A stretch of 62,811 nucleotides of DNA, filler included, from Stramenopiles sp. TOSAG23-3 (GCA_900128585.1; 5 parts of 5 records of this genome joined end to end with filler, not necessarily neighbours in it); one strand, 5' to 3'. Counted from the whole stretch's first letter, positions 1 through 15,256 are shown. Numbers and translations are program-made. The notes: generated by a model from the sequence alone, not told the origin.

Positions 1-21
1 ATATCAAAAACGAATTAAATT

Positions 22-95
22 GGCTGTTATTAAGTAATTAAAATGTATCGTCTTCATGTACCGCGAAAAAGAATCTGCTCCTTTTGTCCATTAAA
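22..95 (+). repeat. Dispersed repeat family B; inverted homolog at about 52234-52310
   Basis: ggctgttatt...gaatctgctccttttgtccattaaa shared in reverse complement. Confidence 0.8.
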
Positions 96-1041
96 AATAA
101 ATATTATCAATTAGTAAAATATTTCGTAATACCGCTTCTTCACAATTGTTTTTCTTACATATAGGGAGTACATTCTTCAACTTCAAACTTCAACGCCACA
201 TAACCTCCACTTTTTACGTATTTTGCTTCCTCATCTAGAATTAAGTACTCCCTATATGTTTATACTTAAATGTTGTATACGCTATGCTGTGTGCATTAAA
301 AGTTCATACGGCCGATACCTGCAACCTCCATACCGGGGTACCGCACCAGCATTAAAAAATTTAGACAAAATTAGACTTATAATTCTAATATATATTCAAA
401 TAATACATATACAGTATTGAATTATTAGAATTATTGAGATAGATTTATTTAAAGACACCACCTCTTTTTTTGGTGTGATGATTGGAAGGAAGAAAAAAGA
501 CGACGAAAACGAAGGAAGAAAAAAGACGACGAAGTCTTTCTTCTGTGTAACAGTAAAATTATACCCTCCTATGGTATTGCCATGTAGTAAGAAGTGCGGA
601 GGCGACGGGTGGTATTGTTGTTGTGGCCGGCCGATATGGCGCGGTGGTGGTGTGCTTTTTATAATACTGGTACAGCAGCAGGATAATTAGCTAATAAAAA
701 ATAAGAGGACGAATATAATAATAAAAAAATATTAATATAATAATAATATAATAATAAATGAATAGATGTGTGTTACTACGATAATTTATTATATTATTAT
801 TTACTCTTTTGTTGTTTGTGGATTACTTTAATTGTTGCTTCGTTTCAATACAGTGTACTTGCAGGTAACAAGGGTACGCGTTCACAACACCCAAGATAAT
901 TATTAGAACTTCAACGAGTGTTGAAAGGGACGAAAGAGCGTGCTACGTTTCCTACACTTACCCCTTGGTAGTCTTTATCACTTGCGGAGTAAGTAACGAG
1001 GCTGTTGCCACCACGCGTTGGTGTCTTCTACCATAAGCAGT

Positions 1042-3708
1042 ATGTCTGACGGGGGGGCTAATCCTGCCATGAGCGTGGCCCTTGCTGCTTCTGTCGTTGC
1101 AGGGGCAATGTCGTGGTACAATACAACAAAAAACATGAAGATGATTGAGGAAAATACGGAAAACATTGTTGTCGCAGCAGATGGTGCGTACCAGGAACGA
1201 CTTAAGGCTGAGCTTGGCAAAGTCGAAGACGTCCACAAAGATCGCTTGAAAGTTCACGAAGACAAGGCCGAGAATCTCAAATTCGACATTGAGAGAGAGC
1301 GGGAATTCTCCGAAAAGTTGCGCGCGGACATGGATGCAGAAGTACAAAAACGACAGGAGTGCGAGCGTAAAATAGAAGAGTTAAAAATTGCAATGGAGGA
1401 AGCCTTGAAGGTTCAAAAGGCTGTTTTATCGAAAAAGTTCGCCGAAAAGCTGGAAAAGGCGGCGGCAGACCATGCGCGAACGCTGGAGGCAGTGCAGCAA
1501 GACCACGACACAAAAATTATAGGATTAATGAAAGAGAAGTCAGAGATGGTAGAGTACTACAATCAGCAAACAAATGATTTGGCGGAGAGTCAGCAAAATT
1601 TACGGGAAACTCACACAGAAGAAATAGCAGCGAGGAGACGCCAGTTCGAGCTTCTGCAGCAGTCTTTGAAAGACTTGGCTGAAACTTTGGAGCTAGAGCG
1701 TGCGGCTCACGCCAAGGCAAAAGTGGAGCACGAAAGGTCCCTGCAAGTGCATGCAGAGAGCTTGGTGAACATAAAACATTCACACGCCGAGCACATGAGG
1801 AGTGTAAAGGAATCTCACGGGGAGGCAATCACAAAATTAGAAGCCCAGACAAATGCCCACAACAGCCACTTGGAGGAAATCCACGACCACCACAACCGAA
1901 AAATTGATGCGAAGCACGAGGAGATGCAAGGCGTGCATGTTATACATTCGAAAAAAATGGACGCGTTGCAGAAAAATCATGAACTTGACATCGCATCATT
2001 AAAGAGCAATCATAAAATGGAGATAGAACAAGCGTTCGACAGCAGGAGGGCTCTTGAAGTGGAGCACCGAAAGGCTTTGGAAGGGGCCAAAGGCGAGTGC
2101 GACCGTGCATTGCAAGACCTGGAAACTTTGCACAAAAGCTCGATAGCAAAGAAAGATAGGGAAATAAAAGAATTAAACGAGTTGCACAATTCTGTGGTCT
2201 CCAAGTATAGCCAAAAGCACGACGAAATTTTGCAAGAGGAACGCGACAGCCACGACAAGTACGTCGAGCGAGCGGAAAGCAAGAGGGCACAGCTCGAGGC
2301 CGAGCTCGAAGCCGAACACAAAAAGTGCAAAGCGTTGCAGTCCGTGCATGAAAGTGCCTTGGAGGACGTTCGGGACGAGCTCGAGAAAAAAATGAAGCAG
2401 CTGCGAAACCAGCTAAAAACCGCTAAATCCATGCACGCAGAGGAATTGGAAGAGTTGGAAAGCAGCCATTCTATAAAACTAAAGAATACTGACACGGCCC
2501 ACAAGTCGCTGTTAGAAACAATTGACGGTTTGAACATTACGTTGAAGCAGAGGGAGGCAGACTATGTCGTTTTGAAGCAGTCCATAGAATTTCGTTGGAA
2601 AGAATCAGAGGAAATACACGGCGAGGAGATTGCGCAAGTGAAGGCCCAGCGAGATAAGTTAAAGCAGATGCACCAAGAAGCTAGAGAAGAGCTCGAGTTG
2701 CGGCACAAGATGGAAGTGGACAGGATCAGGAGCGCACACGCGGAGAGCCAGTCCAAAGCCGAGCTCCTGGAAACGGAGTTGAAGGACGCAGAATCTAGAG
2801 TAGATTCCCTCAAGGGCACAGCGGAGGGTCTCCGCAACAGTCTGGAGGAGAGCAACGAAAAAAACGAAAATGTACAGAAACAAATCATGTCAGACCGAGA
2901 AACCCATAGGCAGAAGCTGGAGGTAGCCGCGCAGCAGGAGACCTTATTTATGGACACCATTGTAAATATAAAGGCTGAAAATGAGGGGCTTCATGCCAAG
3001 ATAAATTCCTTGGTCCAGCAGACCGAACAGCTTGAGCAATTGGCGACGGAGCTGAAGGCAAACTCCGTTCGAGACGCTAGGAAGGCCATCGAAAGCGTTA
3101 AAAAGTTGCAATTCGTAAAAACAGACGCAGAAGCAAGACTCGAGGAGGTGAAAAAGAAGCACGAGAACGATTTGGCAGAGCAGACAAAACAGTACTCGGC
3201 ACAGTTGCTGAAAATTTTTCCACGGGAACGGTTGGAAGACGAGGAGCACCCAGCAGCTCGGGTCTCGCTGTTCATTGCAATGCTGCTAGCGGGAGAAACG
3301 ATTTGTCAGGGGGTGGGAACAATTAAGGAAAAACGGCTAGTCTCATTTTTGAAACAGATCAACTCACCGTTGTTTCTGCCAAGCCAAGATGCAGCTTCTT
3401 TGGCGTCGTCCCTGGTGACCGAACTCAGTCCAGCTTCCAACCGGGGGTCCCGAACGGTCGGAGCGAGCCAGTTTGCACAGTACTTGCTTGCGAAGTTGAG
3501 TAACCACCCTTTAAGTTTGGAAAAGTTGCGAACTATTGCACTTGCAAGCTACTTGTCCCTCGATAAGAGCTCTCCAAAAACTGTTGTCGACATGTCACCG
3601 GCCAGCAAAGCGGCAAAACGGGAGTTTTACGAAAACAACATAAGGCTTCATCGAAAGAAAGCGGAAGAAAGCGGAGAAATAAAGTTGGCACTCGAAGAAA
3701 TCGAGTGA
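1042..3708 (+). CDS. Long coiled-coil protein with N-terminal hydrophobic anchor, function unknown
   Basis: 896-aa ORF (first ATG 1042); hydrophobic VALAASVVAGAMSWY, then about 700 aa of E/K/Q/H-rich heptad sequence. Confidence 0.8.
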   Translation: MSDGGANPAMSVALAASVVAGAMSWYNTTKNMKMIEENTENIVVAADGAYQERLKAELGKVEDVHKDRLKVHEDKAENLKFDIEREREFSEKLRADMDAEVQKRQECERKIEELKIAMEEALKVQKAVLSKKFAEKLEKAAADHARTLEAVQQDHDTKIIGLMKEKSEMVEYYNQQTNDLAESQQNLRETHTEEIAARRRQFELLQQSLKDLAETLELERAAHAKAKVEHERSLQVHAESLVNIKHSHAEHMRSVKESHGEAITKLEAQTNAHNSHLEEIHDHHNRKIDAKHEEMQGVHVIHSKKMDALQKNHELDIASLKSNHKMEIEQAFDSRRALEVEHRKALEGAKGECDRALQDLETLHKSSIAKKDREIKELNELHNSVVSKYSQKHDEILQEERDSHDKYVERAESKRAQLEAELEAEHKKCKALQSVHESALEDVRDELEKKMKQLRNQLKTAKSMHAEELEELESSHSIKLKNTDTAHKSLLETIDGLNITLKQREADYVVLKQSIEFRWKESEEIHGEEIAQVKAQRDKLKQMHQEAREELELRHKMEVDRIRSAHAESQSKAELLETELKDAESRVDSLKGTAEGLRNSLEESNEKNENVQKQIMSDRETHRQKLEVAAQQETLFMDTIVNIKAENEGLHAKINSLVQQTEQLEQLATELKANSVRDARKAIESVKKLQFVKTDAEARLEEVKKKHENDLAEQTKQYSAQLLKIFPRERLEDEEHPAARVSLFIAMLLAGETICQGVGTIKEKRLVSFLKQINSPLFLPSQDAASLASSLVTELSPASNRGSRTVGASQFAQYLLAKLSNHPLSLEKLRTIALASYLSLDKSSPKTVVDMSPASKAAKREFYENNIRLHRKKAEESGEIKLALEEIE

Positions 3709-3924
3709 GTGAGATGAAGAGAGTTCAAAATGTAAGAATTGGACAAAGGAACAAACTCGCGCTAACTAAATTGAAAACCTGCGACAACGTGTTTCACTGT
3801 TCTAAAAACCCTTTAAATCGAGATGTTTCTAACTTTCACTGTGTAGCTAATAAATAAATGTGCGTGAATTTATAAATGTGTTAAAAAACAAATTATTAAA
3901 TATTAATAGTAACATATGCTAATC

Positions 3925-3988
3925 TTGAGAGTCTTAAAACATACTATATAATTAGTTTTTTTTTAATAGTATGCTTTAAGACTCTCAA
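3925..3988. repeat. Palindromic dispersed element, family A (hairpin)
   Basis: ttgagagtcttaaaacatactat / atagtatgctttaagactctcaa inverted arms. Confidence 0.85.
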
Positions 3989-4174
3989 AGGATATATATT
4001 AAAGAGGTCTAATATAATTTTTTTTTGTTTTGTTTAAAGTCAACATATTGCCAATCGCTAAAAGTCTGGCCAAAATTATTTATCGAAGAGTGTTCCGCGC
4101 TGCTTCCTATTGCTCTTCAATACTTTAAAATTGAGAAAATGTTTAATTATGTACACGCCAAACCGTCCAGCTCT

Positions 4175-4780
4175 TTATACTTCCCCGTTGCAGCAGCCCT
4201 GCTCGCGACACCAGACCGCACTCGCGCCGAATAGAGGGCCGTACATTTCGTACAGTTTTCCAATGTCATCTTTGGCCGCTTTTGCTCCACTCGCAATGTC
4301 TTCGCAGACACCTTTTGCTCCCATCATATACTGCTGGCAAGAATCCACATCAGGCTGCCAGTAAGCCGCCCACGCTGCGTTCATACAAAACCCGCAGAGT
4401 GCAGTCTTGGGGGCACATTTTGCCGTGCTACCAACAATTTTAGTCGCCGAAACACCCGCCAAAAAGTCACACTTGCACCCACCGATCTTCATCTTTTGTT
4501 TCAAATGTTGTGCTATTGAATGGTCTACTGTGTGTTTGTTTGCAAATCTGACGTCTTTCAATATTTCCGAGGCAGATTGCGGCAATACTTTCGAGAAAGG
4601 CTTTGGGGGATGGAACTCCTTCTCTTTCTTGACCATTTCTCTATAGGCACTTATTTGTCGTTTATGATGTTTCCGAATTGAAAAGTGTTTCAGAAAAGCC
4701 ATGGAGCCCCGGGCCTGCTGTACGCAGCCGAACAGAAAGACGACAAAAAGAACGCACGGAAGTGTTCCTATCACCTTCAT
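4175..4780 (-). CDS. Secreted Cys-rich protein with C-terminal saposin-like (SAPLIP) domain
   Basis: ATG 4780 gives signal peptide MKVIGTLPCVLFVVFLFGCVQQARG; C-terminal pattern CGFC-x15-C-x10-C-x~31-C-x5-C. Confidence 0.65.
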   Translation of the reverse strand: MKVIGTLPCVLFVVFLFGCVQQARGSMAFLKHFSIRKHHKRQISAYREMVKKEKEFHPPKPFSKVLPQSASEILKDVRFANKHTVDHSIAQHLKQKMKIGGCKCDFLAGVSATKIVGSTAKCAPKTALCGFCMNAAWAAYWQPDVDSCQQYMMGAKGVCEDIASGAKAAKDDIGKLYEMYGPLFGASAVWCREQGCCNGEV

Positions 4781-6298
4781 GATTATGTACTGAGCCACAA
4801 GGCAATGGATACCAATACCAACAACGCAGTAGTAAAATGCACCTTGTTCAAACAACAATCGTTTTCTTCTTACCCTCCTCCCTTCTCTTACAATATTTCA
4901 ATTTCTAAAATTCTTCAAAACAAGAGAAGTGCAATATATTCTAAATCGTAAAACGTAAATATTCTCATAAGAAGAATTTCTACAAATGACAAAACAAAAA
5001 AGAAGCAACCACCACGCACGAACCATCATACTAAATATGAAATATTGTACACTACATATTTACTTCATAAACAATACAATATTATATAAATTATAGCAAT
5101 CATATAGTCGTATACCTACCTCTACATAATTATATAAAAAAATCTAAAATCATCATATAAGCATAATAAATACATTTCACATTCATATTTAATCGTATAA
5201 CATATAATTTAGACTCCGCCCTGCCCCTGCTGCCCTTATTCCCTCATATTTTTTGTCTTCTACTATTTTTTTCCCCTTCTCCTTCTCCTTTCTCCCTTCC
5301 TCTTCTCCTTCTCCTTTCTCCCTTCCTTTTTCTTCCCTTTCCTTTCCTTTCCTTCTTTTGATTTATGATATAGGATTATTTTTATTACAAGTATATAATT
5401 ATATTATAGTTATAGTATGTTAGCTCATACCATAAATGGATTTGCATCTTCTGTGAACACAACACTTTTTTCTTCTTCTCATTCTCAACTGTAGCGCTAT
5501 ATACCAGTAATATAATGTACAATAATATAAATTACATATTTTAAATTAATATTTATATTGAGTACTGTTTTATTCACACTGTGTACACCTTAATTATATA
5601 TTATAATAGTAAAGGATTTACGATCCAACCTAAATGATTTCTATGCTGTGTGATGTATAACTTATTAGTTATTAGCATCAATTCCAATAATTTCTTTGTG
5701 TTTCGTTTATTTATTGTTTTTAAATCATCACGTTCCGTAGTAGTAGTATTAATACCTTGTAGTGCCCTCCTCCTCCTCCTCCTCCTCTCTCTCGGTTGTT
5801 GTAGTACCGTACCGTACCGTAATAATAGACTATAATAGCGTATTTTTTTATTATTATTATTATATAATTTATTATTTTTTTTTTTACTATTACTTTTTTT
5901 TTGTGTTTGTTTTTGTTTTTTCTCTTCGTTCTTTCCCGTTCCGTTTTATTTGTATTGATTAACCAATCAACGTACAAATGAATTACTAGGAAGAAGTGTA
6001 CCGACGCAGTATTTACGCGCGAAAACAGTTATCGTTCGTTATTAGCCGAACGTTATCTGTTGAAAATAACGGGAGTATAAGGTTCGGAATCAATACCCCC
6101 CCGGCCCGGCACGTTTGAGTTTACTGTATACCGAGGAGAAGACCGTTTACAGACGGCCGGTGGCGTTTGAGGACATTTGAATAGGTTGCCCGTAGGCGCG
6201 GTAACGTAGCACCTTGGTCTCGCACATACACAAGCTGTGGCGTTTGTGGCTTGCCAATAGACAAATACAAGTACATTATTTTTTCGTAGGGGGGTAAG

Positions 6299-7321
6299 AT
6301 GGCTCATAAGGCATTGGACTCTGGGGAAGAAAAGTCCAAATTTTTATTTCCTCTCAGCACACGCGTTCAAGAGGGCCACGAGCCCTGCACGGCGGAGGCT
6401 TTGGTGAAAGCCGCTGGCCTGGGGGCCGAAGATTTGTTGGTGGACAATAGAATGCGCCGCGGCAAGTGGACGAAGGAGGAAGAGGATTATGCAAATAAAA
6501 TAATAAAGAATTTTCACGAGGGGTTGATCCCGGATGCCCAGACGGGGATCACCTTGCGTAGTCTGCTAGCGGATAGACTGCTCTGCGATCCGATGAGGAT
6601 AAGCAAGAAGTTTGCGGGCGACTCGTGCGTCGGAAAGCAGGTGTACTCCGAAAATAAGAAGGCGGTGCCCGCGGAAAAACTGAATGCACGGAAGATCGTC
6701 CAGGAAGCGGCTCGCCAGGTGTTTTTCGCAAAGGTAAGGAATCAGAACAAAAGGGCGTCGAGTGCCCGGAATAGGACGGGAGCAAAGAAGCGTTCCCCCG
6801 CAGTGAAGGGTCGACAGGGCAAGAGAGCCGCTCTCGGCTCCGCCCGAGCCAGCGCGGAAAAAGATCGTGGGGAGGCGAAGCACGCGTCGAAGACAAAGTC
6901 GTTCAATCCTTTGCTAGGTGGTAACTTGTTACAATACACGGACCATGAAATAGAAGCGGACGGGATCGCACCCCCCGAAACCAAACCGACGAAACAAACG
7001 AAGAAGCGGCGGAACGCGAACGGCCAGACAAAACCTCGGGGGGCAGCCGGGGGAAGCAGCGCCCAGGCGACGGGCTCGGGGAAGGCCGCCACTCATCCCG
7101 GGGCGAAGAAGAAGCGCGCAGGGAATGCCACTAGTGGTTCAAAAAAGAAGGGAAAATCTGTTAGCAAAAAACTGGGGGAAGTAAAGGGAAGCATGATACA
7201 AAGTGAGAGTGTCTTGTGTTTACAATCCTACATTGGAAAACGAAAGGCTCGCGACCTTGACGTGGACACGACGATGTTCCACCCAGACAACGAAGAAGAA
7301 ATCCTTGGTGTGCAATTTTGA
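6299..7321 (+). CDS. Myb-like/stramenopile-type putative transcription factor
   Basis: RRGKWTKEEEDYANKII...TLRSLLADRLLCDPMRISKKFAG motif that I recognise from diatom/oomycete proteins; basic NLS-like tail. Confidence 0.75.
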   Translation: MAHKALDSGEEKSKFLFPLSTRVQEGHEPCTAEALVKAAGLGAEDLLVDNRMRRGKWTKEEEDYANKIIKNFHEGLIPDAQTGITLRSLLADRLLCDPMRISKKFAGDSCVGKQVYSENKKAVPAEKLNARKIVQEAARQVFFAKVRNQNKRASSARNRTGAKKRSPAVKGRQGKRAALGSARASAEKDRGEAKHASKTKSFNPLLGGNLLQYTDHEIEADGIAPPETKPTKQTKKRRNANGQTKPRGAAGGSSAQATGSGKAATHPGAKKKRAGNATSGSKKKGKSVSKKLGEVKGSMIQSESVLCLQSYIGKRKARDLDVDTTMFHPDNEEEILGVQF

Positions 7322-7669
7322 TAATAAAACCATTATATAGGCAATGTGTACTTATATTATCTCTTATATATAAAGGATAGCAACATCAAAACTTGTTTTT
7401 CTTCTCACAATTGTAGTGTAGAGTATTTTACAAGTACGTAAATAAGCATACATTAGATAGGCACATCTGTTCGAAAATAAAATCTCAAAACAATAACAGG
7501 CAATAGCATACAAAATAAGAAAATAAGAGAAAAATATATATTTTTAGGTTTTTTTTTCCTTCTTTTTTTCCAACAAAATTATACTGTACTAGCTGCTGCT
7601 GCCTGTCGGGATTTTATGATGATTGATGATTCTTTTTTCTCTACGATAATCTTCTCTCTCCGCCTCTTC

Positions 7670-7737
7670 TTCTTTCTTTCTTTCTTTTTTAGATTTCTTT
7701 CTTTCTTTTTTAGATTTCTTTGTTTCTTTTTTAGATT

Positions 7738-7813
<76 letters not shown>

Positions 7814-7850
7814 TTCGACTCTTTCTTTCGACTCTTTCTTTCGACCTCTT
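7670..7850. repeat. (TTTC)n microsatellite with TTCGACTCT units
   Basis: Directly visible tandem tetranucleotide run. Confidence 0.9.
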
Positions 7851-8197
7851 TTTTTTTCTTTCTTCTTTTTTTTCTTTTTTTTTTCTTTTTTATTAGTTAT
7901 TCTACCAAACTATAATATACTTACTATACTATTATTATGTAATTAATTGTTAAATTATATGATATTATTTATTAATATCTATTTATTATTATTATTATTA
8001 CTGGCAATTACACCACACTCTAAAATTCGGTACCGGTATAATATTAATACTGGTGCCCGTGTGTGGAAATAATGTTGATTCGTAATTCACCACTAGGCAC
8101 GGTTTGCATTTACCCCGTCTTTTGTCAGCCGGTTTTCCCATTCTGTGTATTAGAAGTTCGGACTTGGCTTTATAAGTATAGTAGCGTGATAAACAAT

Positions 8198-8749
8198 ATG
8201 TCGGAGCACGAGGTCCTTGAAAAGGACAAATGTGAACACCCTGAATGCACGTACTCGACAAGCGAAAGTGTCAACTGTTCGAACGTTAACGGCAATTTCA
8301 GGTGTGAAAAGTTGAGAAGAATTTTTCGGCAATGCCCTAATAAACCAAGGACCGAGGTCTTTCGATCGAGAAAAAGTGATGAAGGGAGCGATGAAATGCT
8401 TGGGGAAGCTGAGAGTGCTGGGAGGGAGTTGATGGAGGGCTTGTTGCCGCCTGGCTTTGGTCGCATTTTTGGACGGGGGGATAGAGGGGACGAGGCCGGA
8501 GGTGGTTTTTTTGGCGGGGGGATGAGCCCATTCAGAATGTTCGAAGAATTTGAAAGGGCCATATCAGGCCAAATGGAGGAGCATAGGAAACGCGGCGGTG
8601 GGCACGACGGGGGCGAGGAACGGGAGTACCAGCGGGGGTTCCACGTGCGGCCTCCTCACGCCACGCAAGGCGCCGAGGGGAACACGAACCGCGCCAAGGT
8701 CCCTCCGACACACTACCGGCAGTATGAAAAGGGTGCTACTGAGTTATGA
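8198..8749 (+). CDS. Small protein resembling plant Mal d 1/Fra a 1-associated protein
   Basis: C-x-rich N-terminus with RCEKLRRIFRQCPNKPRTEV, then Gly/Phe-rich region; ATG 8198; family call from memory. Confidence 0.5.
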   Translation: MSEHEVLEKDKCEHPECTYSTSESVNCSNVNGNFRCEKLRRIFRQCPNKPRTEVFRSRKSDEGSDEMLGEAESAGRELMEGLLPPGFGRIFGRGDRGDEAGGGFFGGGMSPFRMFEEFERAISGQMEEHRKRGGGHDGGEEREYQRGFHVRPPHATQGAEGNTNRAKVPPTHYRQYEKGATEL

Positions 8750-8753
8750 CACA

Positions 8754-8887
8754 TACGACATTAATTTTCTACTAAAGACGATTGTACATTTACATGAGAG
8801 GTTAATTTTTTTGGCGCGTGTATGACTTTAATTTTCTACTAAATACGATTGTACATTTACAGGAGAGGTTAATTTTTTTGGCGCGTG
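8754..8887. repeat. 67-bp tandem duplication between convergent genes
   Basis: 8754-8820 and 8821-8887 near-identical (a few substitutions). Confidence 0.9.
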
Positions 8888-8898
8888 TGTTTTGTTCT

Positions 8899-11166
8899 TC
8901 ATTTCTCGTGTTTCTGCCAGTTCGGGGACACTTCCGTGAGCAAATCGATGTACTTCTTCTTCGCATCGTTAGGGGACATTCCCTTGTACTTCTTCCACCC
9001 ATCCCACTTTGCCGCACCCACAGGGTCAACGAAGCCGCTGGGTCTTGAAGTTCCCTTGTTATCCCCCACACTAGCCTGCTTGAAAAGGCCATAGAAATCA
9101 ACTTTTTGTGCATTTGACAACGACTTCTCTTTACGAACCCGAAGCGTAGCCAAGGCGAACAGGGCCTGCCAATCTGCGAGTTTTTCTTCCCTCGGGCTGC
9201 TCTGCGATTCCACTTCTCTTTTGCTTACGGAACGTTTTGACCCCGCACCCGAGTACGGTTCTTCTTCCCTCTGCACGCTATCTTTCGCAACTTCGTCCTC
9301 ACTCTTTACTACCGTGCACCCTTCTGGGGCAACGAAACCTTCAGGGTCCGGCAGGCCTCCGTCTTTCCCATCCAGAAAAGAGCCTTCAACGGGGGGCGTC
9401 TTGCGCACCTTAATGAGGTCACAAACCGTTGGCTCTTTCCCTTGCGCATATGTCTTAATCACCTGACTGATCCATTTCCCCCCGTTCTTTAGTACCTGGT
9501 GGTCCACAATCCGAATCTGTTTGGTTGTGTTGTTCGTGTCCGATATAATAAGCCCTTTCTCTGGCACAAACGAATGGGTGAGAAAAACGTCGCTGCCCTC
9601 TTTGTCCTTCAAATGGTAGGTTTTCCCGTCCAGAGGGTACGTGCGGTCTTCATTGTCCGGGGTAATCTTTTTCCCACCATTTCCAAGGTGCAAAGTACGC
9701 TTTATGCCGTAAAGGGTGTGCTGCGTCTTGGTCTCTGTGGCCATGGCAAGGGCAATTTTACGCATAGCCCAATTCAGACCGATGGCAATCATCATCGGCT
9801 CTGTCGTGGTTTTCGATAGCTTTCGGTCAATGGCCCAGGTCCCGGAGTGGTTCATATACACTGGGTCGGCCTGCGGCACGACGAGGATTTCCGCGCTGGA
9901 GCCCATTTGCTCTTCGTATGCATTGAATATTACGGCATATTGACTATTTACATTCTTTGAACCTTCCGGATTTTCAGATCCCGGGACTGGCGGGGTGGTG
10001 GCACCCTCGGACTTTATCAGAACGCTGGCGGACACAACAAAAACGGCCATTCCGACGGACACCTTCTCCACCGAGTAGTCGGTGATCAGGATGTACACGG
10101 CAACGAGCAGGGGCAAGAGAATCCCCAGATAGACCAACGAGCCGAATGATGTCGATTCAATCGTGTCGGCGTCGCCGTTGGCCTGGCCCGGCCCAGTCGT
10201 TTTCCGAAACGACACACTCACTTGCCCCGCCCTGCCAGTACCGTCTGGGCCCCCGGCTTGGTACGCGTCCAGCCACACTTCCCCTGCGAACAGCGCCCGG
10301 TTGCTGTCCAGATTCATGGGCATGTCTACCAAAATGGTCGTCGTGGAAAGGGTGAGCAGCATTTGCTGATCAGGATTAATACTCTCTGCGCCCCCAAGGG
10401 GCAATACACTTCCCCACCGGGCTTCCAAGGCGTTGTTTTCGCTCCCATCGATGCTCACAGACATCAGGCGCACTGCACTGTTTCTGGTGGTGCCAAACGA
10501 CGACGACCTCCCTCCCGAGGCTTGCGGGGTAGTGCTGGGAGTTGGCGCCGACGGGCTTGGGATCAAGCTTACGTGCTGGCCAAGCCGGCTTCGTGCACGG
10601 CTGGAAACCACAGAGACGCTGCCGCTCGAATCCTGTGATCCCTGGGCCAAGGACGCCCCGTCGGACCCAGCCGCTCGACTTCCCGCCAAGGACTTGAGTT
10701 TGTAGAACTCGGACGTTTTCAAAAAATACCGCACAAGTCGCGTTTTGAAAAGGGGTTTGTCCAAAATGATTGCGTTCATGAAGCTGGCAAGGGATATTTT
10801 TCTAGTTGCGATTAATTTTTCGTCTAGGCGATCGGTTAGCCACGTCTTTGGTGGCAGTGCGGGCAAACTGGCGAAGCCGCAAAGGGCTAGCTCACTCTTT
10901 AACTTTACAAAATCACTGTAGCGCCTCGACACCGTCCAGGCGACCTTCCCCCCCTGTCCCCGTGGCGGCAGCGCGTCCAATTGAAGCACATAGTACACGA
11001 CCGATTTATTCTTGTTTTCTTTATCAATGACGACGTCAGAAATGGACACGGAAAACTCATACGATGACTGCACGTTGGGAGTCGGTGCCAGAGACGATGG
11101 TGTGTAGAGCTGCTGGTTTTGTCCACCGAAAGGCCCGTCCGGGGTGTCGGAGCCACCACTGGGCAT
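8899..11166 (-). CDS. PX domain - 2 TM - FABP/lipocalin-like - acyl-CoA-binding (ACBP) protein
   Basis: PX: WTVSRRYSDFVKL...LPALPPK; two hydrophobic helices; NHSGTW...IGLNWAMRKIA; ACBP: FYGLFKQASVGD...KWDGWKKYKGMSPNDAKKKYI. Confidence 0.85.
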   Translation of the reverse strand: MPSGGSDTPDGPFGGQNQQLYTPSSLAPTPNVQSSYEFSVSISDVVIDKENKNKSVVYYVLQLDALPPRGQGGKVAWTVSRRYSDFVKLKSELALCGFASLPALPPKTWLTDRLDEKLIATRKISLASFMNAIILDKPLFKTRLVRYFLKTSEFYKLKSLAGSRAAGSDGASLAQGSQDSSGSVSVVSSRARSRLGQHVSLIPSPSAPTPSTTPQASGGRSSSFGTTRNSAVRLMSVSIDGSENNALEARWGSVLPLGGAESINPDQQMLLTLSTTTILVDMPMNLDSNRALFAGEVWLDAYQAGGPDGTGRAGQVSVSFRKTTGPGQANGDADTIESTSFGSLVYLGILLPLLVAVYILITDYSVEKVSVGMAVFVVSASVLIKSEGATTPPVPGSENPEGSKNVNSQYAVIFNAYEEQMGSSAEILVVPQADPVYMNHSGTWAIDRKLSKTTTEPMMIAIGLNWAMRKIALAMATETKTQHTLYGIKRTLHLGNGGKKITPDNEDRTYPLDGKTYHLKDKEGSDVFLTHSFVPEKGLIISDTNNTTKQIRIVDHQVLKNGGKWISQVIKTYAQGKEPTVCDLIKVRKTPPVEGSFLDGKDGGLPDPEGFVAPEGCTVVKSEDEVAKDSVQREEEPYSGAGSKRSVSKREVESQSSPREEKLADWQALFALATLRVRKEKSLSNAQKVDFYGLFKQASVGDNKGTSRPSGFVDPVGAAKWDGWKKYKGMSPNDAKKKYIDLLTEVSPNWQKHEK

Positions 11167-11621
11167 TGTGCTCTTCGTATTTGTATAAGTTGCACGTACG
11201 TTCCTGGCGAGATGCCTTACAGTTCCGTAACGCAAGAAAGTATACCCTTTCCTTTTTACCACCAATCGAAAGATATGTTCAGAACTGGCGAATTACAATT
11301 AAATATCCACAAAAGCATAAAAATTGATTTTTTTATTTTAATTAAAAAATTTCTTTTTTCTTTCTTTTTTTTTCTTTCTTCTTCTTCTTCTTTTCTTCTT
11401 CTTCTCTTTTTTTTTTCTTCTTCTGGTTGGTCGGTCAGAAGAACGAAGAAGAAGAAAAAACCAGGCGAATACCAGGCAGGCAAACTAAAAACACAATAAA
11501 ATAATACATTGTAATAGCATTGGAACTGATTTACCAAGGGGGTTATCGACGACTATTAATAAAAAATATTATTATTATTATTTTTTTATATTTCGAAATA
11601 AAATAATAATAAAAGTAAAAA

Positions 11622-11654
<33 letters not shown>

Positions 11655-12992
11655 AGTCAAAAAAAAAAAGATTAGCCCTAATGTAATAATAATCCACCAA
11701 AAAAAAATAGTAGAAGTGGGGGGTGGGGGGGCATCGCATCGCATCTCATCGCATTCGCATGGCAAACATTATTTAGTCCTAAATAATAATAATAATGTGG
11801 ATGTTCAGATAGGATTTGTACTGAATACATTACAATTAATAAGTATATTACAATATTCAAAAAAAAATCACTTCATTCTTCTTCTTTCTTCCTTCATTTT
11901 CGCCTTCTTCGCCACAATTCTTTTCTTTTTTTTCTTCTTTCAAAACACAACGTCATCAATTTAAATAATAAATATAAATTAAGATGACACATGGTGGTGA
12001 GAGAGAGACAAAAGACGAAACCATTTTCTGAATAATCTGTAGTAATAAAAGAACAACTACAGCGGAGTCATTTTGATAGAAACAATATTAATTATATAAT
12101 ACTTGTATTTGTATTGTAAAATATAATTGATGTTGTATTCATGTACCTGTTTACTCGATTAGTTGAAGTAGTAGAACAAAAAAACGTTTTATTGGTCCAA
12201 AATTAAAATGGAGGACTATGGAAAACAAAACGAACAAACTACTTTCACCATTTCGATATTTAATGTTGTGATAGTGCTATTTTTTTAATTCCATTATTCG
12301 ATAGAATAAAAAACAGATAATTTTAATCCCACTATTCGCCTGTAAACCAAACATAAAAAAATCGCTGTTTATTATCATCATATTCGTCTATTTCTCAATG
12401 CTGTGAGATGTCCTTCTTGATGTATCCAAGACTAACACTCTGCCCCCATAGAAAAAAGATCGAAGAAGGACAACACATTCTCGCTTTCTTGGCTTCGTAC
12501 TACCTGGTATTTTGTGCCTGTTACCAACTTGTATTACGTATAATATATGTGGTGCTCCCCGTGTCATAAAACAACGCACCATGACGACGAAGAAGAATCC
12601 TCCTGCTGCCTCACTCACTCATCATCATCGATCACAACAACAATATATTTATCACAAAAACAAGCAACAACAAGAACACACGATAGAGAAGAAAAAAAAT
12701 GAAGAAGAAGAAAAAGAAGAGGTGTAAGAGACTTTTTTTCATTCTTCTTTCTGAAATTTCTTAGTGTTTAGTCGACTTCTATTTGTATTGAAGAGGTGGT
12801 TGAATCAAAAAGGTGTAGGAATGAAGGGATTGATTTGAAAGGATAGGCCAGAGAGGTATTCATTGTCCATTGGTATATCTAAATTTGTTCAAGCCTTTTG
12901 TTGTTTCTTAGTTTTGACATCGTCGCACCTTCTGTTTCTGTAGGGGATACATACAATCACGTGTTTGGACGCGAATCGAAGGCTTTCCGACC

Positions 12993-14828
12993 ATGAAACG
13001 TCGCCTCAGCAAAGGAAACGGGCGCCCCGACGCTACGGGCGCAATGCCGATTCCAGGGCGAATGAAAATAAACCTAGGCAACAAACGCCACCATTATGCA
13101 CCTCCTAGCCCGCAAGTTAATTTTGGGTTTGTCCCTGGGCCAGCACTGAAAGCGTCTTCCGCCTCGTCCGGGAGTGGCGGCAGCAGCCACGGGAACGGGA
13201 GCTTGCTGTCAAATAGTTTTAGGGAACCGACTCCCACCACAGGATCATTCGCTCCAGGGACCACCCCCATTCAGACGTCCCCCATGCGGTTTATGGAGCG
13301 CCGCACCAACGGCAAGGGCGGCACGGGACCGTCCAAAAACATCGCGTCCATGCGGAACGGTAGGAACGGTGGACGAGTTGGACTCAGCGATTTTGAACGG
13401 ATTCGTGTGTTGGGGAAAGGCGCTTTTGGCAAAGTGCTTTTGGTCCGGAACAAGCTGACGAAAAAAGTGTACGCGATGAAGATTTTAAAGAAGCACCATG
13501 TCATCAACAAGCGGCAAGTGGCCCACACCATGTCGGAGCGTAACGTGCTGGGGCATACCCAGCACCCGTTCGTTGTTGGGATGCACTACGCCTTTCAGAC
13601 CGTCGACAAGCTTATATTTGTTTTAGATTATTGCGCGGGCGGCGACTTGTACTATCACATTTCACGGGGCGGCCGCCTTTCGGAAGAGCGGTGCAAATTT
13701 TACGCGGCCGAACTCGCAGAGGCTTTGGCCCATTTGCACGCCCACGGCGTCGTCTACCGCGATTTGAAGCCGGAGAACGTTATGATGGACGACGAGGGCC
13801 ACGTGAAACTTGTTGATTTTGGGCTTTCGAAGCAAAACGTGCGCAGCGCGGTGGAGGGGGCATCGAGCTACTGTGGGACCCCGGAGTACTTGGCCCCGGA
13901 GGTCATGACGGACCCGGCAAACCGATCTTATGGCACGGCCATCGATTGGTGGAGCTTGGGAGCCCTGGTGTACGAAATGTTGACGGGTTTGCCGCCGTGG
14001 TACAGCCGCGACCGAGAAACGCTGTTCAATGGAATCAAGCACGGCGAGCTGACGTTTCCCGCGGCCGTCTCCGAGAACGCGCGGGAGATCCTGAGGGCAT
14101 TTTTGTGTCGAAATCCGTTGAAGCGGCTGGGAGTCCAGGGCGGCATTGATCAGATTAGAAAGCACCAATTTTTCGCTGGTTTGGACTGGAAAAAATTGGT
14201 TGCGCGGGAACTGACACCTCCGTGGCTGCCCTCGAGCAAGGCAGAGGATGTCGAGCAAATGAGTACCCTGTACTTCGACAAAGTTTTCACTCGGCTTCCC
14301 GTGCAAAGCGAAGCCCATGGTTCGCACCAGCAGGATACTGACAGTACAATGGCGGAGAGTGAAGATGGGATGTTCAATGGGTTCAGTTACGTCTCTCGTA
14401 AAATGACGCACGGAAAGAGTTTCAGCGCTGGCAGTAGTGGGAGCAACGGAAGCCCGAAGATGGGAACGAAACCCTCCCCGTCGTGCTCTCCGCCAATTTT
14501 TCCTTCTTCCTCCCCCCCTAGAGATGCGTTTGGGAACAATTTAAATGTATTGACGCATGAAAATCACAGTTCATCGCAGAGCAATGGGGGTTCACAAGGG
14601 TTCAAAGTTGGTTCAAACACGGGCAGTTACAACCCCAACGCGATGCCGTGGGCACCGTCTTTCTCCGCCACCTCAGAAAATGCCAGCGGAGTTGCGAGTG
14701 CTTTGAGCAAACTCCCGGAGGGCCAAAAGTCTCTCTCTTCGCTGGCCTCGGCATGGGAGGTCCCTGTAGAAGAAGATAATCGAAGGGGGTCGGACGAGAT
14801 GTTTGACCTTGATGACATGAGCTTGTAG
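12993..14828 (+). CDS. AGC-family Ser/Thr kinase (S6K/SGK/Ypk-like, no PH domain)
   Basis: GKGAFGKV, YAMK, YRDLKPEN, DFG, CGTPEYLAPE, hydrophobic motif FNGFSY. Confidence 0.95.
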   Translation: MKRRLSKGNGRPDATGAMPIPGRMKINLGNKRHHYAPPSPQVNFGFVPGPALKASSASSGSGGSSHGNGSLLSNSFREPTPTTGSFAPGTTPIQTSPMRFMERRTNGKGGTGPSKNIASMRNGRNGGRVGLSDFERIRVLGKGAFGKVLLVRNKLTKKVYAMKILKKHHVINKRQVAHTMSERNVLGHTQHPFVVGMHYAFQTVDKLIFVLDYCAGGDLYYHISRGGRLSEERCKFYAAELAEALAHLHAHGVVYRDLKPENVMMDDEGHVKLVDFGLSKQNVRSAVEGASSYCGTPEYLAPEVMTDPANRSYGTAIDWWSLGALVYEMLTGLPPWYSRDRETLFNGIKHGELTFPAAVSENAREILRAFLCRNPLKRLGVQGGIDQIRKHQFFAGLDWKKLVARELTPPWLPSSKAEDVEQMSTLYFDKVFTRLPVQSEAHGSHQQDTDSTMAESEDGMFNGFSYVSRKMTHGKSFSAGSSGSNGSPKMGTKPSPSCSPPIFPSSSPPRDAFGNNLNVLTHENHSSSQSNGGSQGFKVGSNTGSYNPNAMPWAPSFSATSENASGVASALSKLPEGQKSLSSLASAWEVPVEEDNRRGSDEMFDLDDMSL

Positions 14829-15156
14829 CGCCTAAAATGGATTAATTTTAAAATGTGCCTAAGAAAAGAAGAAGTGTGTGTAGAATTCTTATAGAATGCG
14901 TGCACATTCATTTTATTTACGAAATATCTGTGTTTTTCTGAGCAAATAACTAACTCCGTTTTGCGGTACACGCGAGGAAGATAAATTTTAAATTTTGACG
15001 TAAATAACTCAGCAAATTTTTTGTTTTTAAAGAACTAACTCCTAAAGCCACAAGAGCGTAAGAGTGTAAATTTATTTGCGCCATTGAACCCTGGATCGAA
15101 GGATTTTTAATAAATCTCTTCCACACCCTTAAATTTACTATCCCGGCTATGAGTTA

Positions 15157-15256
15157 NNNNNNNNNNNNNNNNNNNNNNNNNNNNNNNNNNNNNNNNNNNN
15201 TTAATTAATTAANNNNNNNNNNNNNNNNNNNNNNNNNNNNNNNNNNNNNNNNNNNN
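15157..15256. other. Artificial contig linker N44-TTAATTAATTAA-N44
   Basis: Six-frame stop spacer flanked by 44 N on each side. Confidence 0.97.

Follow-up and report, generated by a model that had tools for sequence, protein, structure and literature searches.

SNX-RGS proteins (SNX13, SNX14, SNX19, SNX25 and Mdm1) unite a membrane anchor, a PX domain and a lipid pocket in one chain and have been proposed to be lipid transfer proteins at membrane contacts; their anchor is N-terminal, and they provide a precedent for the coupling of a PX domain with a lipid pocket (PMC8864675). Mdm1 has been linked to fatty acids and to Faa1, and its PXA domain is reported to bind fatty acids (PMC6446837). 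A PX domain and a predicted lipid cavity are also found together in yeast Lec1/Ypr097w; there, the cavity is a helical PXYn-PXYc unit, and the passages of PMC8864675 that deal with Lec1 describe neither a barrel nor an ACBP. ACBD4 and ACBD5, which are described at contacts, carry an ACBP on a membrane-anchored protein. ACBD5 tethers via its FFAT motif and VAP. Proteins of the FABP family are regarded as animal proteins that are small and soluble. PMC3483278 assigns the iLBPs to animals and reports that plants and fungi have none.

Here we describe P0001, a protist protein of 755 residues encoded in a DNA stretch of 62,811 nucleotides from Stramenopiles sp. TOSAG23-3, in the following called the window. 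With the SNX-RGS proteins it shares a membrane anchor, a PX domain and a (predicted) lipid pocket in one chain. In contrast to them, it has no PXA, PXC or RGS domain, its anchor is internal (residues 342-385), its pocket is predicted to be an iLBP β-barrel instead of a helical PXA-PXC cavity, and an ACBP can be built into the family. Due to the absence of PXA, PXC, RGS and an N-terminal anchor, P0001 is not a member of the SNX-RGS/Mdm1 family. The original prediction had proposed an analogue of SNX14/Mdm1 assembled from different parts, and Pfam matches to PXA and RGS are indeed absent from P0001. Searches of its own, incomplete genome with PXA and Lipocalin gave no match, the PXA control matching nowhere either. 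A viral structure library contained no meaningful match. P0001 resembles Lec1 in combining PX with a predicted cavity, and ACBD4 and ACBD5 in having an ACBP on a membrane-anchored protein; unlike ACBD5, it gave no match to a simple pattern for an FFAT motif, acidic FFAT-like motifs included. A membrane-anchored PX-barrel-ACBP architecture was not found described in a literature search lying outside most subscription journals, and the ACBD review PMC7057175 contains none of the terms phox, FABP, stramenopile or protist. What appears to be undescribed is a barrel that serves as a domain of membrane-anchored, PI3P-targeted proteins and that has repeatedly been combined with an ACBP.

Reading frame, copies and transcription

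The window consists of several contigs joined at N runs; the contig of P0001 covers positions 1-15156 only, and the joins begin at 15157. P0001 is encoded on the minus strand (11166..8899) in an uninterrupted, intronless frame, which contains no internal stop and requires no intron. The PX motif (about 10710-11055), the two TM helices, the FABP/lipocalin-like segment (about 9405-9852) and the ACBP (about 8905-9170) of the original prediction all lie in this single frame, and their coordinates proved accurate to within a few codons. What that list of parts overlooked is a β-rich region (residues 230-323) and a strand that follows the hairpin.

P0001 belongs to a 12-member cluster, in which seven further full-length records are 99.7-100% identical to it from end to end. 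These copies, some of which may share source data, argue against an assembly chimera. The remaining four members are C-terminal fragments, as one would expect if two genes had been read as one ORF, though all of them are located on short contigs. The PX-hairpin-barrel part is continuous in two further species, and at locus L003 hairpin, barrel and ACBP lie in one frame; together with the intact frame of P0001, these data make an artefact of either kind very improbable. The interval 8700-11400 occurs, whole or in part, in 20 of the 24 runs listed, and 12 of these 20 are recorded as RNA. The highest share of sampled words in an RNA run was 0.79; four RNA-kind rows with shares of 0.00-0.04 and a further row with 0.20 were left unused. 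As judged from this word sampling, the two halves of P0001 are transcribed in the same samples. The architecture of P0001 is real, expressed, under selection and apparently undescribed.

The PX domain and its linkers

The PX domain (10696..11061, minus strand; residues 36-157) is supported by Pfam PF00787 at residues 75-151 (E 1.7e-12) and by PDB matches to PX domains over residues 39-151. With 29 PX matches in this genome, the domain alone is ordinary. According to PMC6449406, four residues are needed for the binding of PI3P by PX domains, a rule said to be valid for any species; in the PI3P-binding groups II and IV these are an Arg-Tyr pair, a lysine of the PPK loop and an arginine of helix 2. 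In P0001 the sequence pattern of this canonical site is intact (R82, Y83, K107, R122), so that the postulated reading of PI3P membranes is plausible at the level of residues. All four residues are kept in six of the seven family members examined, and P0031 has a phenylalanine in place of the tyrosine.

The PX domain is followed by a low-complexity linker of about 70 residues (10480..10695, minus strand; residues 158-229), whose composition suggests disorder. A short motif at about residues 192-207 of the linker is shared by the three species that make up the clade of P0001. Two short Ser/Thr-Pro-rich motifs flanking the PX domain on the minus strand, at 10546-10593 and 11077-11103, are kept in the three clade species and, being conserved despite low-complexity surroundings, are candidate regulatory motifs.

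Membrane hairpin and β-rich region

For the membrane segments, Kyte-Doolittle hydropathy was computed with a 19-residue window. The two predicted TM helices coincide with peaks of 2.59 at residue 344 and 1.88 at residue 366, which belong to hydrophobic helix 1 (10081..10143, minus strand; residues 342-362) and hydrophobic helix 2 (10012..10068, minus strand; residues 367-385). The AlphaFold model places helices at the hairpin, with a pLDDT of only about 50. A hairpin is found at the equivalent place in all seven PX-barrel proteins examined. The turn between the helices is short and polar; outside residues 342-385 P0001 contains no hydrophobic helix, and its N-terminus has no hydrophobic segment. 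Because of the short turn and the missing N-terminal hydrophobic segment, the soluble domains would all lie on one side of the membrane, in the cytosol. A hairpin of the lipid-droplet type was ranked low, as the turn appears to be polar or charged in all members.

The hairpin is flanked by the β-rich region (10198..10479, minus strand; residues 230-323) and a hydrophobic strand (9919..9942, minus strand; residues 409-416), which are both conserved in the clade. The AlphaFold model contains strands in the β-rich region at a pLDDT below 50, and strand 409-416 may complete this domain. PDB and Pfam profile searches with residues 230-323, C2 included, gave no useful match, and no paralogue of the region was found in this genome. 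In the Atlas, the equivalent region of the relative P0057 is linked to C2 clusters at 0.80, a value that shuffled proteins reach one third of the time. A C2-like sandwich formed by residues 230-323 and 409-416 and interrupted by the hairpin is a weak lead and not a result.

Fold of the middle domain

The barrel occupies positions 9400..9855 on the minus strand (residues 438-589) and is followed by a tail (9292..9399, minus strand; residues 590-625), which is conserved in the clade and also present in a K+ channel fusion described below. Residues 438-589 have no Pfam match up to E 10 (on the whole of P0001, Pfam recognizes PX and ACBP and nothing further up to E 1), and a PDB search with the single sequence was also empty. 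With a profile of six barrel sequences, all 60 of the PDB matches listed were iLBPs, the best being CRBP-IV (E 2.5e-4); these matches cover mostly the N-terminal third. Atlas leads pointed to unnamed clusters (0.92-0.94) and to FABP-type clusters (0.85-0.87).

A structure prediction of the middle domain, by which a calycin fold could be recognized, was carried out for residues 225-635 with an alignment of 17 sequences; a model of the whole chain from the single sequence had a mean pLDDT of 33 and was left unused. The barrel was modelled at pLDDT values of 80-94 and consists of one strand, two helices and nine more strand elements, one of which has only three residues. Foldseek assigned the model to CRABP, FABP and P2 proteins (E 6.8e-7 to 9e-6, target TM 0.69-0.78). 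In a wide structural search the best match was CRBP-IV (6at8_A), with a Z-score of 13.5, an rmsd of 2.4 and 129 of 133 residues aligned; the next nine matches, at Z 10.8-12.6, have the common fold, and unrelated barrels reach Z values of about 7 or below. We therefore predict the FABP/iLBP (calycin) fold for the middle domain with high confidence, in line with the segment that had originally been named FABP/lipocalin-like. The ranking of the matches names no ligand, since solved iLBPs are 7-19% identical to the barrel and since UnaG, SAHS and nanoKAZ, which bind ligands other than fatty acids, score close by (Z 11.7-12.4, at most about 2 below the best).

The barrel shares with the iLBPs (FABP, CRBP, CRABP) the predicted fold of ten strand elements, the helix-turn-helix lid, the G-x-W motif and a weak sequence homology. 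It differs from them by its length of about 150 residues, by an extended loop behind strand three, by its occurrence in a protist and by being a domain of a 755-residue hairpin protein, whereas iLBPs are small soluble single-domain proteins. G442 and W444, which form the G-x-W motif of the first strand, are invariant in the family alignment; the motif has been described before (PMC4156332). With the invariant Arg588 as the reference for the register of the last strand, P0001 has Leu584-x-Lys586 where the distant subfamily introduced below has Arg-x-Leu. Presumably, these positions correspond to the carboxylate site Arg126/Tyr128 of FABP4, with Leu584 at the place of the canonical arginine. A basic residue is thus kept at one of two alternating positions of this strand, namely an arginine in the subfamily with N-terminal ACBP and Lys586, which is invariant, in the P0001 clade. 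In our reading, Lys586 might be a shifted anion anchor.

Relatives and other fusions of the barrel

The syntenic orthologue P0003 at locus L004, whose barrel is 66% identical, ends past the barrel tail in all seven aligned records, and the orthologue of the third species (L005, L006; barrel 44% identical) also stops after the tail; no ACBP match was found at the orthologue loci of these two other clade species. In a more distant subfamily the barrel is 27-34% identical, with a profile probability of 99.7; P0026, P0027 and P0059 carry an N-terminal ACBP, which is absent in P0031. A profile-profile comparison of the two subfamilies aligned them from the post-hairpin strand onwards only, the β-rich region remaining outside the alignment. 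As judged from these sequences, the conserved core of the family consists of PX domain, β-rich region, hairpin and barrel, and the ACBP is optional. The four-part chain of the original prediction is not what the family has conserved.

With phmmer, 15 barrel relatives were retrieved at E up to 0.001 from 1.84 billion representative sequences. Five are PX-hairpin-barrel proteins (three full and two fragments, one of which belongs to a cluster with a full-length ACBP-PX protein), and two go with FYVE domains: P0033 has four barrels and two FYVE domains, and P0038 is a fragment of the FYVE-barrel-hairpin protein P0061. The others are six multi-barrel proteins without a recognized partner, one small stand-alone barrel that begins with a hydrophobic stretch, and one K+ channel. 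A PI3P reader is present in six of the 15, either directly or via a longer cluster member, probable in one and not seen in eight.

Tandem barrels, two to four in number, were observed in P0028, P0030, P0032, P0033, P0034, P0035, P0037 and P0062; P0032, P0035 and P0062 have hydrophobic helices at their end, where P0033 has its two FYVE domains. P0036 and P0063 are small stand-alone barrels with a signal-peptide-like N-terminus and Arg-x-Phe in the last strand, and are possibly bacterial. In P0065, a member of the P0061 cluster, the FYVE-barrel-hairpin part is followed by a Pho88-like stretch, which was seen in this one record only and is below the cut-off (E 0.0012).

The channel is represented by P0024, P0039 and P0040, which combine a two-pore-domain K+ channel with EF hands, two TIGFG filter motifs and a C-terminal barrel plus tail. 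This barrel and tail are 55% identical to those of P0001. On contig C2888 of the same genome (L002:35-979) the last helix of the channel, the barrel and the tail lie in one frame that is 99% identical to P0040; the rest of the gene lies beyond the contig. In a tree built with tight barrel bounds, the channel barrel groups with the P0001 clade with a support of 100/100, and a tree forcing all PX-fused barrels together without it was rejected (p-AU 0.002). Based on these two results, the channel barrel most likely came from the lineage of the PX gene; a test of whether it nests among the three clade orthologues gave a p-AU value of 0.10. The channel with its barrel is a candidate for a built-in lipid sensor.

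Gain of the ACBP domain

The C-terminal ACBP of P0001 (8911..9177, minus strand; residues 664-752) confirms the expected domain: PF00887 matches at residues 668-743 (window 8938-9165) with E 5.2e-23 and 81.5 bits, the cut-off being 28.3, and the match covers model positions 2-76 of 76. Four ACBP matches occur in this genome. One belongs to a PRELI-ACBP gene (L009:1471-2796, minus strand, contig C5172), the product of which combines a hydrophobic stretch at the N-terminus with a basic run, a PRELI domain (E 7.8e-14) and an ACBP at the C-terminus. Its ACBP is identical to that of P0001 at 211 of 250 bases (84%), and the match is confined to the coding sequence of the domain. Between the two copies we found pS 0.38, dS 0.53 and dN 0.09; the resulting dN/dS of about 0.18 indicates purifying selection. 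The two domains are a recent duplicate pair to judge by their sequences, and copying is possible in either direction.

Synonymous sites between the species of P0001 and that of L004 are saturated, with pS values of 0.83-0.91 for barrel, PX domain and a neighbouring kinase gene. Compared with these values, the pS of 0.38 implies that the ACBP of P0001 is younger than the split from the L004 species; it is thus a recent gain, unless gene conversion has reset the divergence. The domain shares 34% identity with the N-terminal ACBPs of P0026, P0027 and P0059. Its opposite position, this identity and the dS value support the conclusion that an ACBP was added to the PX-barrel family on two or more occasions, to opposite ends of the chain. 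The corresponding ACBP tree comprised seven rows only and left P0027 unplaced. Two other ACBP fusions of this genome are a protein kinase domain with a divergent ACBP (L010:46-2376, plus strand, contig C6003; Pfam E 6e-15 and 1e-12) and an ACBP with ankyrin repeats (L007:976-1968, minus strand, contig C7), an arrangement that we take to be ACBD6-like.

Possible function

The reading that we favour, with a probability of roughly 0.4, is that P0001 is a PI3P-steered, membrane-anchored protein for the handling of acyl lipids, which has its anchor in the ER and works in an SNX14/Mdm1-like manner at contacts with endosomes or food vacuoles. The hairpin would anchor the protein in a bilayer, most likely that of the ER. 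The PX domain on its linker would, given its binding-site residues, bind PI3P on an endosome or food vacuole, and such binding in trans would hold two membranes close. The barrel, standing where SNX14/Mdm1 has PXA-PXC, would load an anionic lipid with a single chain, most probably a fatty acid set free by the digestion of prey, and unload it at the anchoring membrane; the optional ACBP would hold acyl-CoA formed after activation. Since an ACBP is missing in both other clade species and in P0031, this acyl-CoA step would not be essential. In favour of this reading, P0061 and P0033 combine barrel and PI3P reader in other forms, the two ACBP fusions point to acyl-chain metabolism, and the sister copy of the ACBP sits on a PRELI lipid-transfer protein. 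Note that the shared iLBP fold by itself shows no function. The presence of Leu584 at what is presumably the canonical arginine position counts against a fatty acid as ligand, and the eight of 15 barrel relatives in which no PI3P reader was seen count against the reading as well. In addition, the barrel may be only about 20 residues away from the post-hairpin strand and about 50 from helix 2; this leash is short for a wide gap and counts against a tether. Taken as a whole, the original interpretation is partly supported.

The short leash fits better with a protein that acts without tethering: The hairpin might reside in the endosome or food-vacuole membrane itself, the PX domain might serve sorting or retention by binding PI3P in cis, and barrel and ACBP might gather fatty acids and acyl-CoA where the digesting vacuole faces the cytosol. 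P0001 has no ER mark in its sequence, and its hairpin is internal, other than the anchor of the SNX-RGS proteins. Nevertheless, the length of the PX linker seems suited for binding in trans. Pho88/Snd3 is an ER protein, and the Pho88-like end of the relative P0065 is a weak hint to the ER. We consider the cis arrangement an unlikely, if serious, competitor of the contact-site reading.

Two further explanations, both of which we regard as rather improbable, concern the barrel. It could be a lipid sensor and not a carrier, ligand binding altering the state of P0001 and regulating endosomal traffic or signalling. That the related barrel ends a K+ channel with EF hands suits sensing better than carrying, the more so as the separation of the PX-fused barrels from the channel barrel was rejected; yet no effector domain is recognized in P0001 by Pfam, and tandem arrays of three or four barrels as well as the two ACBP fusions are more in keeping with binding capacity. 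The other explanation, no more probable than the sensor, is that the barrel holds a retinoid, carotenoid, bilin, sterol, lysolipid or no ligand at all, and that the ACBP is a passenger peculiar to this lineage, whose genome shuffles domains freely. The best sequence and structure matches are retinoid binders, an FABP-like carotenoid binder has been reported (PMC4156332), Leu584 presumably replaces the canonical arginine, and the ACBP of P0001 is recent. The Z differences among iLBPs are small and the identities low, so the ranking is of little help for this proposal, and both the purifying selection on the ACBP copies and the independent ACBP fusion of the second subfamily speak against a mere passenger.

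More speculative than this reading is the generalization that the FABP-type barrel is a mobile module for lipid transfer and lipid sensing in protist membrane proteins and defines a new contact-site class, which would have repeatedly joined PI3P readers and hairpins, acquired an ACBP twice and been copied from the PX gene to a K+ channel as a fatty-acid sensor. According to our predictions, marine protists use the FABP fold as one domain of proteins that are anchored in a membrane and targeted to PI3P. If the barrel carries fatty acids, the iLBP barrel joins the folds used for lipid transfer at contact sites, and a testable exit route for prey lipids from the food vacuole of abundant marine bacterivores can be proposed. 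One member of the sister-species cluster (the species of L004) bears the source label Stramenopile MAST-4. On the strength of this label and of the head-to-head kinase gene that the two species share, the window probably stems from MAST-4 or a near relative; MAST-4 are described as marine grazers with phagocytosis functions (PMC8237690). Convergence in domain architecture is cleanly exemplified by the two ACBP gains, and the K+ channel that bears the barrel lends itself to studying how such channels are gated by fatty acids.

Genomic context

An AGC-type kinase gene (12918..14828, plus strand; Pfam Pkinase and Pkinase_C) is located head-to-head with the gene of P0001 and was used as a synteny marker only. 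The arrangement is repeated in L004, where the kinase is 92% identical at the amino acid level over 300 codons; in the third species (L005/L006), the kinase gene does not adjoin the PX-barrel gene. Just downstream of the stop codon of P0001, at window positions 8760-8890, a direct repeat, imperfect and about 60 bases long, was noticed by eye.
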